A stretch of 46,114 nt of DNA from Candidatus Fervidifonticultor secundus. Its GTDB lineage: Bacteria > Sysuimicrobiota > Sysuimicrobiia > Sysuimicrobiales > Humicultoraceae. A program made the translations under genes and the position numbers. Of this stretch, positions 1,186 through 21,711 are shown one piece after another. The stretch covers positions 1 to 46,114 of the forward strand of contig JAVKIP010000024.1 of the NCBI GenBank assembly GCA_031459385.1. The letters run 5' to 3'. How positions within the stretch are numbered: the first letter of the stretch is position 1; each line of letters starts with the position of its first letter. Below the pieces are notes generated by a model, which was not told the DNA's origin, made no database searches, and saw nothing but the letters and a program-made list of their open reading frames with translations.

Positions 1186-3065
<1,880 letters not shown>

Positions 3066-14510: not shown

Positions 14511-14616
14511 CCGCCACTTGTGGCGCCGTGCGGGGCAGGAACCGCCGGCCGGCGCCGCGAATCTGCGGAACGAGACGCCGGCGGAGGGAGGTGAGGCAGG
14601 TTCGTCGCGTGCCGCA

Positions 14617-14783
14617 AGCGCCTGAACCCGGCGCTCGCCGGGTTGACGAGGGAGGGGAACTCGGAACGTTCGGCGGGTGACCCTAGGCCCGGTCCGGGCC
14701 TGCACCACCTCAGCCCACCACTCCCCGGCTGAGGCAAGGCCGCCTGCAAACCCCGGAGGCGACTCCGGCCCAAAGGGCGGACC
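14617..14783 (+). ncRNA. glmS ribozyme: glmS ribozyme (GlcN6P-activated self-cleaving riboswitch)
   Basis: A^GCGCC core at 14617-22; P1 AACCCGGC/GCCGGGTT; GACGAGG at 14645-51; P3 AGGCCC/GGGCCT with loop GGTCC complementary to GGACC at 14779-83; AAAC..CCGGAG-GCGA-CTCCGG..CAAAG (P4/P4.1); directly upstream of glmS. Confidence 0.92.
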
Positions 14784-14884
14784 AGGACGCGTCAGACCGT
14801 CACTGCCCGGTCATCGGGACCCCAGGCAACCATGCCATCTGCACGGTGGCCGTGGCAGGAACCTCGCTTCCGGAGGGCGCAGCC

Positions 14885-16732
<1,848 letters not shown>

Positions 16733-16789: not shown

Positions 16790-16954
16790 GTGACGATCGA
16801 CGCGGAGTTGCTGCAGATCCTGGCCTGCCCGGTGGACCACGCCCCCGTGGTGCTCGAGGGCGACCGCATCGTGTGCACGCAGTGCGGGCGGCGCTATCCC
16901 ATCCGCGACGGCATCCCGCACATGCTGGAAGACGAGGCCGAGCTGCCGCAATGA
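16790..16954 (+). CDS. Trm112/YcaR family small protein, 54 aa (not in the ORF track)
   Basis: Manual translation: MTIDAELLQILACPVDHAPVVLEGDRIVCTQCGRRYPIRDGIPHMLEDEAELPQ; its stop overlaps the acpS ATG. Confidence 0.9.
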   Translation: MTIDAELLQILACPVDHAPVVLEGDRIVCTQCGRRYPIRDGIPHMLEDEAELPQ

Positions 16955-17331
16955 TCGTGGGGGTCGGGGTCGATATCGTCGAGGTGGCGCGCATCCAGCG
17001 CGCCATTGCCCGCTGGGGCGACGGCTTCGTGCGCCGGATCTACACCGCGCGCGAGGTGGAGCGGGCGGCCGGAGCGGCCGTGCTCGGTCCCCGGCTCGCC
17101 GCCCGGTTCGCCGCGAAGGAGGCGGTGATGAAGGCGCTGGGGTGCGGGTGGCGCGAGCTGGCCTGGCGCGAGATCGAGATCACCAACGACCCGCAGGGCC
17201 GGCCCATGGTGCATCTCCACGGCGCCGCCCGGCGGATCGCCGCCGCGCGCGGCATCGCAGAAGTCTACGTGGCGCTCTCGCACACCCACGACCACGCCAT
17301 CGCCAACGCCGTGGCGGTCGGCCCGTCGTAA
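16951..17331 (+). CDS. acpS: Holo-ACP synthase
   Basis: MIVGVGVDIVE, LAARFAAKEAVMKALG, ALSHTHDHAIA. Confidence 0.96.
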   Translation: MIVGVGVDIVEVARIQRAIARWGDGFVRRIYTAREVERAAGAAVLGPRLAARFAAKEAVMKALGCGWRELAWREIEITNDPQGRPMVHLHGAARRIAAARGIAEVYVALSHTHDHAIANAVAVGPS

Positions 17332-17365
17332 CTGCAGGGTGTAGCGGAACAGGCGGGGGAAAGGA

Positions 17366-17534
17366 AGAGGGGCGCTCGCTGTGTCCGACTTTTCACCGTC
17401 TTCGGCTGCGCCGCCGGGTCGTACCGCCATCGAGCTGATCTCGGGAGTTACCCCCCAAGAAGACCGTCAGGCTCTCAGACTCCACGTGCGCAGCGTTTGA
17501 ATCGGCTACTTCGCCGTTAAGCTTGCGCCCCTCT
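17366..17534 (-). ncRNA. Unassigned structured ncRNA, ~169 nt, rod-like (6S-like or new class)
   Basis: 5' AGAGGGGCGC pairs perfectly with 3' GCGCCCCTCT; nested stems CCGATT/AGTCGG, GCTGCGC/GCGCAGC, GAGCcTGA/TCAGCTC; apical 9-bp hairpin with a GUAA tetraloop; 5' end coincides with the predicted TSS. Confidence 0.72.
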
Positions 17535-17541
17535 GTCAGGG

Positions 17542-17571
17542 ACCCTACCATGATCTTCCGGCGAGCGTCAA
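17542..17571 (-). promoter_or_regulatory. Sigma70-type promoter driving the antisense ncRNA
   Basis: Minus strand: TTGACG (17571-66)-18 nt-TAGGGT (17547-42) with an extended -10 TG. Confidence 0.65.
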
Positions 17572-17696
17572 TCCCCAACGATTGTTCCCATCTTGTGGAT
17601 TGTGTGGGCAGCCCGTGCGCGCCGGCGGGCCGCCGTGAAAGGAAACGCCGCACGTGGGCCAGAAGCCACGATCTAACGCACGGCCTGTGACGAACG

Positions 17697-19271
17697 ATGC
17701 GCGTGCCCACCAGCCAGCAGATGGTCGTCCTGGACCGCCGGGTCGCCGAGGAGTACGGCCTGCCCACGCTGTTGCTCATGGAGGCGGCAGGCCGGCGCGT
17801 GGCCGACGCTGCCTGCCGCCTGGTCCGGGGCGCCACCCCGCATGCCGTAGTCGTCGCCGGCAAGGGCAACAATGGGGGCGACGGCCTGGTTGCCGCGCGG
17901 GTGCTGGCAGCCCTTGGCTGGGACGTGCGCGTGCTCCTGCTGGCCCGCGACGTCGAGGTCGCGGGTGACGCGGCCGTTAACCTCCAGGCCGCGCGTCACG
18001 CCGGCGTCGAGGTGACCAACCTGGACAGTACCGGGGTGCGCGGCCTGCGGCCCGCGCTGGCCGCCGCCGACCTGATCATCGACGCGCTGTTCGGCACCGG
18101 CTTCCGCGGCCCGGCGGTCGGGCTGGCCGCCCGGGCGATCGAAGCAATGAACGCCTCTGGCCGTCCGGTGCTGGCCATCGACATTCCCTCCGGGGTGCAC
18201 GGCGACACGGGGGCGGTCGAGGGGCCGGCGGTCCGCGCTCGCGCCACGGTTACGATGGGGCTGCCGAAGCTGGGGCTGGTGCTGCTGCCCGGGGCCGAGT
18301 ACGCGGGCACCGTCTGGGTGGCCAGCGTCGGACACCCCCGCCGCCTGCTGGACAGCCCGGAGATCACGACCCGTCTGGTCACGCGGGCCATGGTCGATGC
18401 CGCCGTGCCCCCGCGGCCCCTCGACGCGCACAAGGGGCAGTTTGGCCGGGTGCTGGTCATCGCCGGTGCCGTGGGCTACACCGGTGCCCCGGTACTCGCG
18501 GCGCTCGGGGCCCTTCGGGGCGGCGCGGGGCTGGTCCGGCTGGCCGTGCCCGCCAGCATCTACCCTATTGTGGCCGCGTCGGTCATCGAGGGCATGCCCG
18601 TGCCCCTGGCCGATGAGGAGGGCGCGCTGGCTGCCTCTGCCGCGGATCAGGTCCTGGCGCTGGCCGGCGAGGCCGACGTGATCGCGTGTGGTCCCGGCCT
18701 GTCGCGTCTGCACGGACCCCGGCAGGTCGTCAGGCGCCTGCTGCTGGACAGCCGGCGGCCGCTCGTCCTGGACGCCGACGCGCTCAACTGCCTGGCCGAC
18801 GAAGCCGACGTGCTGGGCCAGGCCAGGGTCCCGGTGGTGCTGACACCACATCCCGGCGAGCTGGCCCGGCTGCTCGGCACTGACGCCGGGGCGATCCAGC
18901 GCGGCCGGCTGGATGCCGCGCGGGAGGCGGCCGCGCGGTTTCACGCGGTGGTGGTGCTGAAGGGGGCCCGCACCCTCGTGGCCTCGCCCGAGGGCGAGGT
19001 GTTCGTCGTGCCCACCGGGAATCCGGCCATGGCCACGGGTGGGATGGGTGACGTGTTGACGGGCGCGGTTGCGGCGTTCGTCGGGCAGGGGCTGGCACCG
19101 CTGGCCGCGGCATGGGTGGCCGCGTACCTGCACGGGCTGGCGGGTGACTTGGCGGCGGCCTCAAGGCCGGGTGGGTTGCTGGCCCGGGACGTGGCGGCGG
19201 CGTTGCCTCAGGCGCTCGGAGCCGTCCGGCGCGGCGAGGTGGAGGAGGCTGTGCGGGGGGAGCCATGGTGA
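17697..19271 (+). CDS. nnr: Bifunctional NAD(P)HX epimerase/dehydratase
   Basis: LME.AG, GKGNNGGDG, DALFGTG, DIPSG, HKG.FG, LTPHPGEL, LKGA.T, MATGGMGDVLTG. Confidence 0.96.
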   Translation: MRVPTSQQMVVLDRRVAEEYGLPTLLLMEAAGRRVADAACRLVRGATPHAVVVAGKGNNGGDGLVAARVLAALGWDVRVLLLARDVEVAGDAAVNLQAARHAGVEVTNLDSTGVRGLRPALAAADLIIDALFGTGFRGPAVGLAARAIEAMNASGRPVLAIDIPSGVHGDTGAVEGPAVRARATVTMGLPKLGLVLLPGAEYAGTVWVASVGHPRRLLDSPEITTRLVTRAMVDAAVPPRPLDAHKGQFGRVLVIAGAVGYTGAPVLAALGALRGGAGLVRLAVPASIYPIVAASVIEGMPVPLADEEGALAASAADQVLALAGEADVIACGPGLSRLHGPRQVVRRLLLDSRRPLVLDADALNCLADEADVLGQARVPVVLTPHPGELARLLGTDAGAIQRGRLDAAREAAARFHAVVVLKGARTLVASPEGEVFVVPTGNPAMATGGMGDVLTGAVAAFVGQGLAPLAAAWVAAYLHGLAGDLAAASRPGGLLARDVAAALPQALGAVRRGEVEEAVRGEPW

Positions 19272-20083
19272 TGCGCGTGGCGTTCCAGGGCGAGCCGGGC
19301 GCCTACAGCGAGGTGGCGGCGCTCGAGCAGTTCGGCGAGATCGTGCCGGTGCCGTGCCGCTCGCTGGCCGACGTCTTCGACGCTGTCGAGGGCGGGAGCG
19401 CCGACCGGGGGATCGTGCCCGTGGAGAACTCGCAGGCCGGGAGCATCAACGAGACCTACGACCTGCTCGTGCGCCGCAGCCTGCACATCGTCGGCGAGCG
19501 CAACCTCCGCATCGAGCACTGCCTGCTGGCCCTGCCCGGGGAGACGCTGGAGACGATCCGCACCGTCTGCTCCCACCCGCAGGCTCTGGCGCAGTGCGAC
19601 GCCTACCTGAGCCGGATGGGCTGGGAAGTCGTCGCCACCTACGACACCGCTGGCAGCGCGAAGCTCGTGGCCACCGAGCGGCGGCGCGGTGCCGCGGCCA
19701 TCGCCAGCCGGCGCGCGGCCGAGCTGTACGGCCTGCACATCCTGGCCGAGAACATCGAGACGAACCCGGTGAACTACACGCGGTTTCTGGCCCTGTCCCT
19801 GACGCCGGCGCCTGCCGCCGCCCGCGCCAAGACGTCGGTGGTTTTCACGACGGCGAACGTGCCGGGGGCCCTCTATCGCGCGCTGGGGACCTTCGCGACG
19901 CGCAGCATCAACCTGACGAAGCTCGAGTCGCGCCCTCGCCGCGACCGGCCCTGGGAGTACCTGTTCTACGTGGACTTCGAGGCCCACAAGGACTCACCCG
20001 AGGGCCGCGCCGCGCTCGCCGAGCTCGCCGGCGTCACCGCGTTCCTGCGGGTGCTGGGCTCGTACCAGCGCGCCGACGAGTGA
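19265..20083 (+). CDS. pheA: Prephenate dehydratase with ACT domain
   Basis: VAFQGEPGAYSE, PVENS, SHPQALAQC, NYTRF, INLTKLESRP. Confidence 0.96.
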   Translation: MVMRVAFQGEPGAYSEVAALEQFGEIVPVPCRSLADVFDAVEGGSADRGIVPVENSQAGSINETYDLLVRRSLHIVGERNLRIEHCLLALPGETLETIRTVCSHPQALAQCDAYLSRMGWEVVATYDTAGSAKLVATERRRGAAAIASRRAAELYGLHILAENIETNPVNYTRFLALSLTPAPAAARAKTSVVFTTANVPGALYRALGTFATRSINLTKLESRPRRDRPWEYLFYVDFEAHKDSPEGRAALAELAGVTAFLRVLGSYQRADE

Positions 20084-21711
20084 GCGGCATCGCGGGACGC
20101 TGGCCGCGCCTGCTGCCGCTGGGCGATTGCGGGCTGCTGGTCGAGTTCGCGCCAGAGGTCTCGCCCGAGGTCAACGCGCTGGTCCGCGGCGCCGAACCGG
20201 CGCTGGCGCGTCTGCCAGGGGTCTGCGAGACGGTGCCGGCGTTCCGGTCGGTCCTCGCGGTCTACGACCCGCGGCGCACCACGTTCGACCGGCTCGCCGA
20301 GGCAGCCGAGGCCGCCGTGCGCGCCGCCGGCCCGGCCCGCGATGACCTCGGCCGGCTGCACGAGATCCCCGTAGCGTACGGCGGCGAGTGGGGACCCGAC
20401 CTGGAAGCGGTCGCGGCCGCGCTGGGCCTGTCTGCGGCCGAGGTCGTGGCGTTGCACGCCGGGACGACCTACCGCGTCTACATGCTGGGGTTCTCGCCGG
20501 GGTTCCCCTACCTGGGGCTGCTGCCCGAGGCTTTGCGCCTTCCGCGGCGTGCCACGCCGCGGACCCGCGTGCCGGCTGGCAGCGTCGCCATCGCCGACGC
20601 CTTCGCCGGGATCTACGCGCAGGACACAGCGGGGGGCTGGCACCTGCTGGGACGCACGCCCGTCCGGCTCTTCGACCCGGCTCGACCCGATCCGTTCCTG
20701 CTCGCGCCCGGCGACCGGGTGCGCTTCGTGCCCGTGCCGGAGATCCGCATTTCGCCCGCGCCGCCGGCGGCGTCCTTCGTGCCCCGGCGGCCGGTGTTCG
20801 ACGTGCTGGACCCGGGCCTGTTGACCACGGTGCAGGACGCCGGCCGCTTCGGATGGCGGCGCTTCGGGGTGCCTGCCTCGGGCCCGATGGATCGCCGCGC
20901 GCATGCGGCGGCCAACCTGGCCGTGGGCAACGCCCCGGGCGCGGCGGCCATCGAGATGACGTTCCCGGGCCCGAAGCTGCGGGCGGTGGCCGATGCGGAG
21001 ATCGCCGTGGCCGGCGCGGACCTGGGCGCGCGCCTCAACCACTCGGATCTCGAGCCCGGGCGGCCGACGCGGGTCCGACCGGGAGACCTGTTCACGCTGG
21101 CTGCGCCGCGCGGCGGGCAGTGGCTCTACCTGGCCGTCGCCGGTGGCGTCGACGGCCCGGAGGTGCTGGGAAGCCGCGCCACCTGGACGCGCGGCGGCGC
21201 CAGCGGCGTGCTCGGCCGGCCGGTCCGGGCAGGAGAGATCCTGGGCGTGGGAGAAGGACCCGCCGGTCCCCGTCGTCGGCAGCCTGTGCCCCTGGTCCCC
21301 GCGGGCCGTCGCACCCTCACGGCGCGCGTGGTGCTGGGGCCGCAGGCGGACGCGTTTGCGCCCGAGGGGCTCGCCGCGTTGCTCGGGGCGACGTTCGAGA
21401 TCACCGTGCAGCGCGACCGCAGCGGCGCGCGGCTGCGCGGCGTCGTGCTCCGCCACCGCACCGGCGCCGACATCGCGTCCGACGGCCTGCTGCCGGGCGC
21501 GGTGCAGGTGCCGGCCGACGGCTCTCCGGTGGTGATCCTGGCCGACGGGCCCACCACCGGCGGGTACGTGAAGGCCGCGGCGGTCATCGGGGCGGACCTG
21601 GACGCCTTCGCCCAGCTCGCCCCGGGCGATCGGGTGCGGTTCGAGGCCGTGACGGTCGCCCGGGCGCACGACCTGCTCCGGACCGCGCAGGAGGACGCCC
21701 TGTGCAGCTAG
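20080..21711 (+). CDS. pxpBC: Fused 5-oxoprolinase subunits PxpB-PxpC (KipI-KipA-like)
   Basis: GTGA overlap with pheA; YGGEWGPDL, GFSPGFPY, GGWHLLGRT (B part); PGLLTTVQD.GR, SGPMD, PTTGGY (C part). Confidence 0.9.
   Translation: MSGIAGRWPRLLPLGDCGLLVEFAPEVSPEVNALVRGAEPALARLPGVCETVPAFRSVLAVYDPRRTTFDRLAEAAEAAVRAAGPARDDLGRLHEIPVAYGGEWGPDLEAVAAALGLSAAEVVALHAGTTYRVYMLGFSPGFPYLGLLPEALRLPRRATPRTRVPAGSVAIADAFAGIYAQDTAGGWHLLGRTPVRLFDPARPDPFLLAPGDRVRFVPVPEIRISPAPPAASFVPRRPVFDVLDPGLLTTVQDAGRFGWRRFGVPASGPMDRRAHAAANLAVGNAPGAAAIEMTFPGPKLRAVADAEIAVAGADLGARLNHSDLEPGRPTRVRPGDLFTLAAPRGGQWLYLAVAGGVDGPEVLGSRATWTRGGASGVLGRPVRAGEILGVGEGPAGPRRRQPVPLVPAGRRTLTARVVLGPQADAFAPEGLAALLGATFEITVQRDRSGARLRGVVLRHRTGADIASDGLLPGAVQVPADGSPVVILADGPTTGGYVKAAAVIGADLDAFAQLAPGDRVRFEAVTVARAHDLLRTAQEDALCS

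Follow-up and report, generated by a model that had tools for sequence, protein, structure and literature searches.

Structured RNA classes of bacteria such as OLE, raiA, ROOL/GOLLD and HEARO are restricted to particular lineages, covary strongly and carry invariant loops, and their functions were unknown at the time of discovery. Earlier classes, namely 6S, OLE, raiA and ROOL, have each led to new biology. In this study, we analyzed a stretch of 46,114 nucleotides (nt) from Candidatus Fervidifonticultor secundus (contig JAVKIP010000024.1; the whole stretch is referred to as the window and its assembly, GCA_031459385.1, as G000) and found that positions 17534..17366 on the minus strand encode, as a stand-alone gene, a structured and rod-shaped non-coding RNA of 169 nt, referred to as the rod RNA. 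This RNA resembles OLE, raiA, ROOL, GOLLD and HEARO in its lineage restriction, its strong covariation and its invariant loops that hint at protein or ligand contacts, whereas it differs from them in being unbranched, in its occurrence in one candidate phylum and in matching none of their Rfam models. Genomes, contigs, loci and families are numbered with the prefixes G, C, L and f respectively.

Two protein-binding systems are also comparable in shape. The likeness to 6S RNA (SsrS, RF00013) lies in a stand-alone gene of ~170-190 nt, a largely double-stranded fold with paired ends and a lineage-wide conservation, whereas the rod RNA lacks the large central bubble, has other conserved sequence blocks and does not match the 6S model. 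The Y RNA/Ro60 system shares with it an end-pairing stem with conserved bulges and, possibly, a protein-scaffold function. However, the rod RNA has neither a Y RNA model match nor a tRNA-like domain, and a search of G000 (97.6% complete) for TROVE (Ro60, PF05731) gave 0 matches while the control genomes were matched.

A fourth point of comparison is DucS of Bacillus altitudinis, a small RNA (sRNA) of ~200 nt which excerpts of its report (PMC10504365) describe as occurring in linear and circular forms, with RNA-seq reads in permuted order. According to the same excerpts, the base that follows the terminator is linked in the circles either to the transcription start or to positions 26-35 nt beyond this start, which results in sizes of 200 nt and 165-174 nt, and the circles were confirmed with RNase R, northern blots and reverse transcription PCR (PMC10504365). 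The excerpts also present DucS as a base-pairing regulator of htrA translation (PMC10504365).

The rod RNA gene and its consensus structure

The rod RNA gene is located on the minus strand of the gap between acpS (16873-17331, plus strand; PF01648) and nnr (17697-19271, plus strand; YjeF_N plus Carb_kinase), where it overlaps neither gene and the rod lies 34 nt past the acpS stop. Measured from the first to the last paired base (17366..17534, minus strand), the rod consists of nine helical segments in 169 nt and is capped by GUAA. The minus strand has a minimum free energy (MFE) of -97.5 kcal/mol (z -3.07), equalled by 0 of 200 shuffles, whereas the plus strand reaches -85.7 kcal/mol (z -0.81) and was equalled by 47 of 200. 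Folding that is better than shuffled sequence is therefore limited to the minus strand. An initial annotation of the window had described a stand-alone minus-strand RNA gene with its own promoter, and this description is borne out by the fold z-score and by the conservation of both the family and the promoter. Its term 'antisense' holds for the orientation between acpS and nnr only, as copies in other families have other contexts.

The rod is closed by the stem P1, in which the 5' arm (AGAGGGGCGC, 17525..17534) pairs with the 3' arm (GCGCCCCUCU, 17366..17375) over 10 bp, as given by the consensus structure and its covariation. The letters directly 3' of this stem, which ends at 17366, are UCCUUUCCCCC. 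They begin a pyrimidine- and U-rich tail (17351..17365, minus strand) that is a probable termination zone, with a 3' end at ~17365. At the other end of the rod, the apical GUAA tetraloop of the GNRA type (17448..17451, minus strand) was invariant in 29 sequences. Both the perfect 10-bp terminal stem with its pyrimidine tail and the GUAA loop had been described initially, and the sequence bears them out.

The RNAalifold consensus of 29 sequences is an unbranched rod with 49 pairs, and compensatory changes occur in 21 of these. A larger alignment was drawn from 84 loci, 20 divergent paralogs among them, and comprises 86 matches, of which 85 are distinct. Paired cells make up 96.4% in the 85 distinct sequences compared to 86.6% in shuffled ones, and changes on both sides of the pair occur in 34 of the 49 pairs compared to 21.6. 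The covariation score of 0.363, against 0.187 for the shuffled alignments, was matched by 0 of 500 shuffles, with the reservation that this alignment was fitted to the covariance model and hence favours the structure. Controls in which the pairing partners were slid gave a pairing of 31.6-48.6% and a score of 0.041-0.066. Compensatory changes were found in five of eight pairs of P1 and in six of eight pairs of the helix that closes the GUAA loop. New conserved structured RNA classes with covariation of this extent together with invariant loops are rare.

In the consensus of the 85 sequences, the helices of the window copy are, in order, AGAGGGGCGC/GCGCCCCUCU (helix 1), GC/GC (helix 2), CGGC/GUCG (helix 3), GCCG/CGGU plus UC/GA (helix 4), GCUGCGC/GCGCAGC plus CGU/GCG plus G/C (helix 5), UC/GA (helix 6), GCC/GGC (helix 7), GGU/GCU (helix 8) and the GUAA-capped CUUGGGGG/CUCCCGAG (helix 9). 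The internal loops of the rod are all small (2x2, 4x6, 6x5, 4x4, 5x5, 4x4 and 3x4). Out of the seven helices proposed initially, five are present in this covariation-supported consensus: the terminal stem, GCUGCGC/GCGCAGC and the apical hairpin, together with GCU/AGC and GUC/GAC, each of which retains two of its three pairs. The remaining two were replaced, CCGAUU/AGUCGG by CGGC/GUCG plus GCCG/CGGU and GAGCcUGA/UCAGCUC by GCC/GGC plus GGU/GCU. RNAalifold run on two sequences had given a large bubble with two local hairpins, a model overturned by the additional sequences because the change GUC>GCC breaks the 3' hairpin GAC/GUC while the cross-strand pairing CGGC/GYCG covaries.

Conservation is not confined to the helices. 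The most conserved block of the 5' strand, GCCGAuUCAAAC (17495..17506, minus strand; at least 97% in the 85 sequences), comprises P4, a 2-nt bulge, the UC/GA pairs and the 4x4 loop, and it faces the most conserved block of the 3' strand, AAGACGGUGAAAAG (17389..17402, minus strand). Conservation of at least 97% is seen in two motifs of the 5' strand, GCCGAnUCAA and GA.aG, and in two of the 3' strand, CrGUA and AGACgG. The 6x5 internal loop has GAAGUA (17507..17512) on its 5' side and GAAAA (17390-17394) on its 3' side, and is located between the covarying CGGC/GYCG and GCCG/CGGU. The 5x5 loop has the UGAGA region (17472..17476, with GAnAG conserved) on its 5' side and GGUAC (17421-17425, with CrGUA conserved) on its 3' side; both loops are on the minus strand. 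GAAGUA/GAAAA and GAnAG/GGUAc may be loop-E or bulged-G-like modules, a tentative assignment by likeness to these motifs. Readings of the conserved blocks as a K-turn, a T-loop or a promoter for an extracytoplasmic function (ECF) sigma factor were weighed by eye and discarded. The helices and the loop sequences of the rod RNA are both under purifying selection.

Distribution, genomic context and known RNA classes

A second copy (copy B) was found in the assembly of the window at C6:39760-39936, with 80% identity over 154 bases. It also measures 169 nt from stem to stem and has a z-score of -3.76 on the sense strand compared to -0.79 on the opposite strand. Compensatory changes separate the two copies, one of them within the terminal stem. 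With a covariance model built from these two copies, 34 of 41 relatives were matched over the full length of the RNA. Across the whole GTDB phylum (CSP1-3 / Ca. Sysuimicrobiota), which in the genome collection used consists of one class with one order, full-length matches were obtained in 74 of 94 genomes. This count includes the unpublished genomes G010 and G019 with one match each, and is 72 of 92 when both are left out. The rod RNA usually occurs once per genome, with a maximum of six copies. Matches were found in 31 of 33 genomes of f1, 17 of 22 of f2, 23 of 23 of f4 (with up to six copies, some as tandem pairs) and in the single genomes of f6 and f7 (1/1 each), and were absent from f3 (0/1) and f5 (0/12). 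When five good f5 genomes were searched again with an improved model at an expectation value (E) <=1, the sole yield was a 17-bit chance match. The absence from f5 may reflect divergence and not loss, because RF00013 fails in f5 as well (0/4).

An exact-pattern scan of one genome for each of 185,579 species gave 63 loci, every one of them in metagenome-assembled genomes (MAGs). The titles of these MAGs name Armatimonadota, Bacillota, ANGP1, CSP1-3, 'bacterium', 'uncultured bacterium' and one Candidatus Nitrosymbiomonas sp., and those named to genus are Ca. Fervidifonticultor, Geohabitans, Calidihabitans and Thermofontivivens. The first three of these genus names appear in excerpts of the paper that names CSP1-3 'Sysuimicrobiota' (PMC11604079). 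The pattern was found in 119 stretches of metagenome contigs, in which a scan for short permuted contigs returned ordinary DNA contigs throughout, and there were 0 rod RNA loci in the viral contigs scanned. The rod RNA family was found solely in the candidate phylum CSP1-3. With its presence in most of the phylum, its covariation and the lack of an Rfam family match, the RNA is probably a new class specific to this lineage, as had been supposed before relatives were compared. It comes near to being a signature molecule for this uncultured phylum, which is widespread in soil, the subsurface and hot springs, and could be used both as a marker and as an entry point to the RNA-protein biochemistry of CSP1-3. 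Among the listed matches in open full-text literature on CSP1-3/Sysuimicrobiota none concerned RNA, and queries of that literature for CSP1-3 with noncoding RNA, plus a broader one, returned nothing; subscription journals and supplements lie outside this literature.

Tandem pairs, in which each copy has its own promoter module and the copies are ~130-160 nt apart, were observed in f4-type genomes and in metagenome contigs. Examples are L093 (1470-1649 and 1778-1957) and L096 (1471-1649 and 1806-1985), and further pairs occur in L149, L198, G067:C21 and G068:C33.

Synteny of the gene is stable within families, whereas the contexts differ between them. The gene neighbours nnr and acpS in f1, nnr and a dehydrogenase in f2, and DUF1844, DUF255 and M20 in f4, while copy B is flanked by PGA_cap and a hydrolase; beta-CASP, M50-CBS and PFK are further neighbours. 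On the minus strand of the window, and in f1 generally, the region downstream is the antisense of acpS and there is no co-oriented gene. Elsewhere the downstream genes vary or are opposed, and U-rich tails follow the stem, all of which agrees with the initial statement that the element is not a riboswitch. The position divergent from nnr, which is kept in f1 and parts of f2, and the strong hairpin past acpS would suit a cis element of the acpS-nnr gap, such as a bidirectional acpS terminator or a regulator that acts on nnr as an antisense RNA or through a divergent promoter. We regard this as highly improbable, as the same RNA and promoter module occur in unrelated contexts (f4, copy B and others), the element overlaps no gene, and far less than 169 nt of covarying structure and invariant loops would suffice for a terminator.

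The terminal inverted repeat of 10 bp, the two to six copies in some genomes and the tandem pairs raise the question of a selfish repeat resembling a miniature inverted-repeat transposable element, or of another mobile RNA element. Such an origin is barely plausible, given that copies within a genome have diverged (80% identity) while compensatory changes preserve the structure, that a single copy in stable synteny is typical, that a conserved promoter lies outside the repeat and that neither viral contigs nor an adjacent transposase or reverse transcriptase were found. Among the 18 plus 44 flanking open reading frames (ORFs) scanned, there was no reverse transcriptase, no transposase and no recurrent RNA-binding or processing gene; an adjacent reverse transcriptase, as in a retron, is accordingly absent from these ORFs.

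No Rfam family matched the rod RNA at the gathering threshold at the locus. Relaxed searches, at E<=10 for the locus and E<=0.5 for 34 diverse members, returned chance matches only, of which mir-378 (14.2 bits), the L31 leader (14.8 bits) and archaeal RNase P (16.4 bits) were dismissed. The initial annotation had proposed this comparison for 6S and all families, and its view that the element is not a tRNA, transfer-messenger RNA, signal recognition particle (SRP) RNA or RNase P RNA stands. The SRP RNA of this genome (RF00169, RF01854) was located at G000:C9:4383-4648, with 181.9 bits and, for the small model, 75.4 bits, and the SRP RNA models do not match the rod RNA locus.

The suggested likeness to 6S did not survive this analysis. 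RF00013 does not match at E<=10, the structure contains no bubble, and canonical 6S RNA was found elsewhere. As the largest internal loop measures 6x5 nt, followed by 5x5 and 4x6, there is no bubble of the open-promoter kind. A full-length RF00013 candidate occurs at G000:C12:198426-198617 on the minus strand (L003 1501-1692) with 40.2 bits against a cut-off of 46.4, and genomes of the same genus gave 57.1 and 54.1 bits. In all, RF00013 matches were obtained in 31 of 41 relatives; the curated cut-off was exceeded in 28 of these, and the highest score was 103.7 bits. With canonical 6S already in the phylum, the rod RNA is not to be annotated as 6S. A divergent 6S-type RNA that binds the RNA polymerase holoenzyme would account for the ~170-nt, mostly double-stranded rod with paired ends, and two 6S RNAs do occur in some bacteria. 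Given the loop sizes, the presence of canonical 6S in G000 and most relatives and the failure of the 6S family at E<=10 at the locus and E<=0.5 in the 34 members, we judge it very unlikely.

Promoter, upstream box and termination

The rod RNA promoter is of the sigma-70 type with an extended -10 element. The -35 hexamer TTGACG (17566..17571, minus strand), whose TTG is invariant in 63 class-1 regions (see below), is separated by an 18-nt spacer from the extended -10 (TG 17550..17549, g, TAGGGT 17547..17542, minus strand), the placement of which is conserved in relatives. TAGGGT is followed by 7 nt to A17534, and transcription probably starts at A17534 or G17533. A TAnnn[T/A/G] hexamer is found 4-10 nt ahead of the first paired base in 74 of the 85 distinct copies, with TGn in 56. 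The minus-strand promoter proposed initially (TTGACG-18-TAGGGT with extended TG) is therefore confirmed in its coordinates and has elements conserved across the copies. A generic scan of the locus for promoters and terminators gave 0 sites; the promoter was missed because TAGGGT agrees with TATAAT at just three of six positions.

At the other end, at least four T within 10 nt past the closing stem were found in 75 of the 85 copies, in a genome of 72% G+C. The closing helix followed by the U- or pyrimidine-rich tail means that the whole rod doubles as a terminator hairpin. A bare intrinsic terminator was considered and rejected on account of the empty terminator scan, the 169-nt length, the invariant loops and the gene's own promoter.

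A total of 84 distinct upstream regions were compared and sorted into two classes. Class 1 (63 regions, including that of the window) has a GAAC box followed by a TTG-type -35 in the layout (A)TCCACA - N6 - GAAC - N4 - [G38/T16/A9]TT[C47/G16] - N2-5 - TTGAC/TTGTG/TTGCG. In this class, all 63 regions contain GAAC and 62 of them TT, with a fixed spacing of 4 nt. In the window, the box is the palindrome GAACAATCGTTG (17576..17587, minus strand), a candidate operator resembling a Cheo/LexA box, located 4 nt upstream of the -35, and the TCCACA element (17594..17599, minus strand), which is part of the shared promoter module, lies 6 nt upstream of the palindrome. Class 2, to which most of the other 21 regions including copy B belong, has GAATAC - N9-11 - CCGATGGCG together with a weak -35, which points to a second control mode, either activator-dependent or through another sigma factor. 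Instances of the class-2 motif GAATAC-N9-11-CCGAT(G/A)GCG were noted at L002 1440-1480 and upstream of L067, L106, L110 and L112-L127.

In its half-sites and spacing, the class-1 palindrome agrees with CGAACRNRYGTTYC, the LexA box consensus of Gram-positive bacteria. The boxes of the window's own genome are CGAACACGTGTTTG for lexA and CGAACATTTGTTTG for recA, the latter situated between TTGACA and TAGCCT, and 27 of the 29 recA loci examined in relatives carry an upstream box of the CGAACAnnnGTTTG or CAAACAnnnGTTTG type, a count that excludes the locus of the unpublished G010. The palindrome beside the -35 could thus be a LexA operator and the rod RNA a damage-inducible sRNA of the SOS response that acts under DNA-damage stress. 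The invariant half-sites GAAC-N4-[G/T/A]TT[C/G] of the 63 class-1 copies would fit this, with a perfect GAAC-N4-GTTC in many copies of f1 and f2, as would the CGAACAnnnGTTTG-like box of recA, the CGAACACGTGTTTG of lexA in G000 and a canonical CGAACACATGTTCG at an equal distance from ATTGACA in front of a 48-aa ORF (G000:C18). Several observations weigh against it. The inner bases of the rod RNA box are G..C compared to A..T in every bona fide recA and lexA box observed in the phylum, the second half of the f4 box is TTTC, the class-2 paralogs including copy B are boxless and carry GAATAC-N9-11-CCGATGGCG, and another regulator could bind the box. We therefore consider a role in the SOS response unlikely. 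As for the box itself, its letters suggest that transcription might be controlled through the GAAC-N4-GTTC-like element, possibly by LexA; with inner bases unlike those of true boxes, such control is conceivable and, in our estimate, rather unlikely.

A scan of G000 for the box plus a -35 gave seven matches: the rod RNA, two tRNA T-arms, C1:39063, C39:6270, the 48-aa ORF and a hairpin RNA on C23. The match at the 48-aa ORF (box at ~2010-2023 of L282) is the canonical LexA-type CGAACACATGTTCG, 2 nt ahead of ATTGACA; the ORF (L282 1817-1963, minus strand) contains CxC...CxxC, is zinc-ribbon-like and lies beside a 179-aa ORF. The idea that the GAAC box is a general mark of stable-RNA promoters was abandoned, since the window's rRNA promoter has no such box. 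The 5' part of the 16S rRNA gene occupies 45236-46114 (plus strand), where it is cut by the end of the window, and its promoter at ~45104-45135 has TTGACA and GGTATAAGAAT-type hexamers with no GAAC box.

The C23 match is a second unannotated rod-hairpin sRNA of ~85-95 nt (G000:C23, L283 ~1866-1953, minus strand; promoter 1965-2025). Its sequence runs GUCAGCGG...CCGCUGAC and then AUUUUGUG, it folds with an MFE of -54.6 kcal/mol (z -4.0), and it has no match in Rfam. The promoter module, TCCACA-N6-GAACGACCGTTT-CGG-ATTGACG-N17-TGATAGGGT, is near-identical to that of the rod RNA in the window. The sRNA and its promoter are kept in 23 of 24 f1 genomes, a tally that includes the unpublished G010 and G019, and are weaker in f5, f7 and f2. 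In G014:C32, a C23-type sRNA copy (19990-20147, plus strand) and a divergent rod RNA copy (20206-20372, minus strand) are found back to back within 60 nt.

Transcripts, head-to-tail joints and possible function

Four metatranscriptome runs (X1-X4) hold part of the stretch when compared at a likeness of at least 85%. Two of these cover the rod RNA only, 17369..17530 in X2 and 17365..17533 in X3, with a word depth of ~28-30 and 0 in the flanks. The rod RNA thus accumulates as a discrete species of ~162-169 nt with ends near 17533 and 17365, positions which agree with those of the promoter and the tail. The contigs, of 192 nt in X2 and 198 nt in X3, are both circular permutations, with joints 17530>17369 (going back 162) and 17533>17365 (going back 169) respectively. 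Their lengths correspond to the unit plus 30, as a closed cycle would give in a k=31 graph. The variant letters of X2 and X3 are those of a genome of the same genus, G002 (four of four listed differences agree), and the eight differences of G002 inside the RNA equal the 2+6 other letters of X2. Since the G002 assembly has a single gene that is not in tandem, the joint is not encoded in that DNA.

Junctions of more than one kind, in which the start region is joined to the terminator end, recall DucS as described in the excerpts of its report, with joints of 162 and 169 nt in the rod RNA. The rod RNA differs in being near-fully paired and in having joints that come from the contigs of one study, and the two RNAs were compared by description only. 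A rod with conserved internal loops that appears as cyclic metatranscriptome contigs is also reminiscent of viroid-like and Obelisk-like RNAs, insofar as these are covered by the excerpts available (10.1101/2022.07.19.500677). Nevertheless, the rod RNA is chromosomal, with a promoter and stable synteny, has no ribozyme match or replicase and is far smaller than Obelisks.

The best overall explanation, which in our opinion has about an even chance of being correct, is that of a stand-alone, family-forming gene for a rod RNA that would act in trans by binding protein. As a stable RNA it might be a scaffold or a decoy, a role to which we assign a chance close to even or slightly below. The invariant internal loops, GCCGAnUCAAAC facing AAGACGGUG and GAnAG facing CrGUA, would provide the surface for recognition, and both ends of the RNA would be shielded by the blunt closing helix. 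Neither extended base pairing nor the open-promoter mimicry of 6S is apparently the mode of action. Part of the pool may have its 3' end joined to its 5' end, possibly by a cellular ligase, for which the encoded RtcB is a candidate. The joined form would be a dumbbell whose two closing loops are GUAA and a loop of 4 nt, and we consider partial circularisation possible and somewhat doubtful. In the circular fold the rod is kept, with one or two pairs opened into the 4-nt loop.

An extension of this explanation is that the functional form itself is the covalently closed dumbbell, an exonuclease-resistant housekeeping RNA produced by transcription, perhaps a trimming of a few bases, and joining of the ends by RtcB or an ATP-dependent ligase. 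The cyclic contigs of 162+30 and ~168+30 nt in two runs with the depth and empty flanks given above, their letters identical to those of G002 with its one non-tandem gene, the meeting of the ends in a blunt 10-bp helix at a cost of one or two pairs, the presence of RtcB and the DucS precedent (excerpts of PMC10504365) speak for such a circle. In G000 the RtcB gene lies on C58, and 82 of the 94 phylum genomes have one. On the other side, both joints come from contigs of one sediment study (X2 and X3) and differ from each other, 162 compared to 169 nt. The other two runs are from hot springs. X4, from a second study with a depth of 2.4, contains a chimeric contig that stops twice at 17365 and shows no head-to-tail joint, and the long contigs of relatives in X1 extend into unlike flanks, with neither a circular form nor clean ends. 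The joints could have arisen by template switching or ligation in library preparation, and the contigs carry no strand, level or exact-end information. The 5' triphosphate of a primary transcript is not usable by RtcB without processing. RtcB is also present in 12 of 12 f5 genomes, all without the rod RNA, so that there is no signal of co-distribution. Taken together, we hold the circle as functional form to be a tentative and somewhat unlikely reading.

If the joints are real, they would offer a clean natural case for how and why bacteria circularise a primary transcript, which is little explored beyond DucS, and the rod RNA would become the first circular non-coding RNA with a housekeeping role throughout a bacterial phylum. 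A composite of these ideas, in which a chromosomal, viroid-shaped circle of 162-169 nt docks a protein by its loops and is synthesised under a -35-side operator (possibly for LexA) common to the second rod RNA on C23, is one we regard as fairly unlikely.

Matches to RtcB are split (profile positions 1-50 and 49-426) within frames of 936-1031 aa in the unpublished G010 and in G012, G015, G016, G046, G047, G049, G057, G064 and G089, and RecA matches end at position 198 in frames of 632-747 aa in G010, G011, G014 and G029. Both patterns resemble insertions of the intein type. Finally, a glmS ribozyme match was found in the window at 14606-14713 (plus strand), with 38.2 bits against a cut-off of 37, upstream of a 628-aa ORF at 14846-16732.

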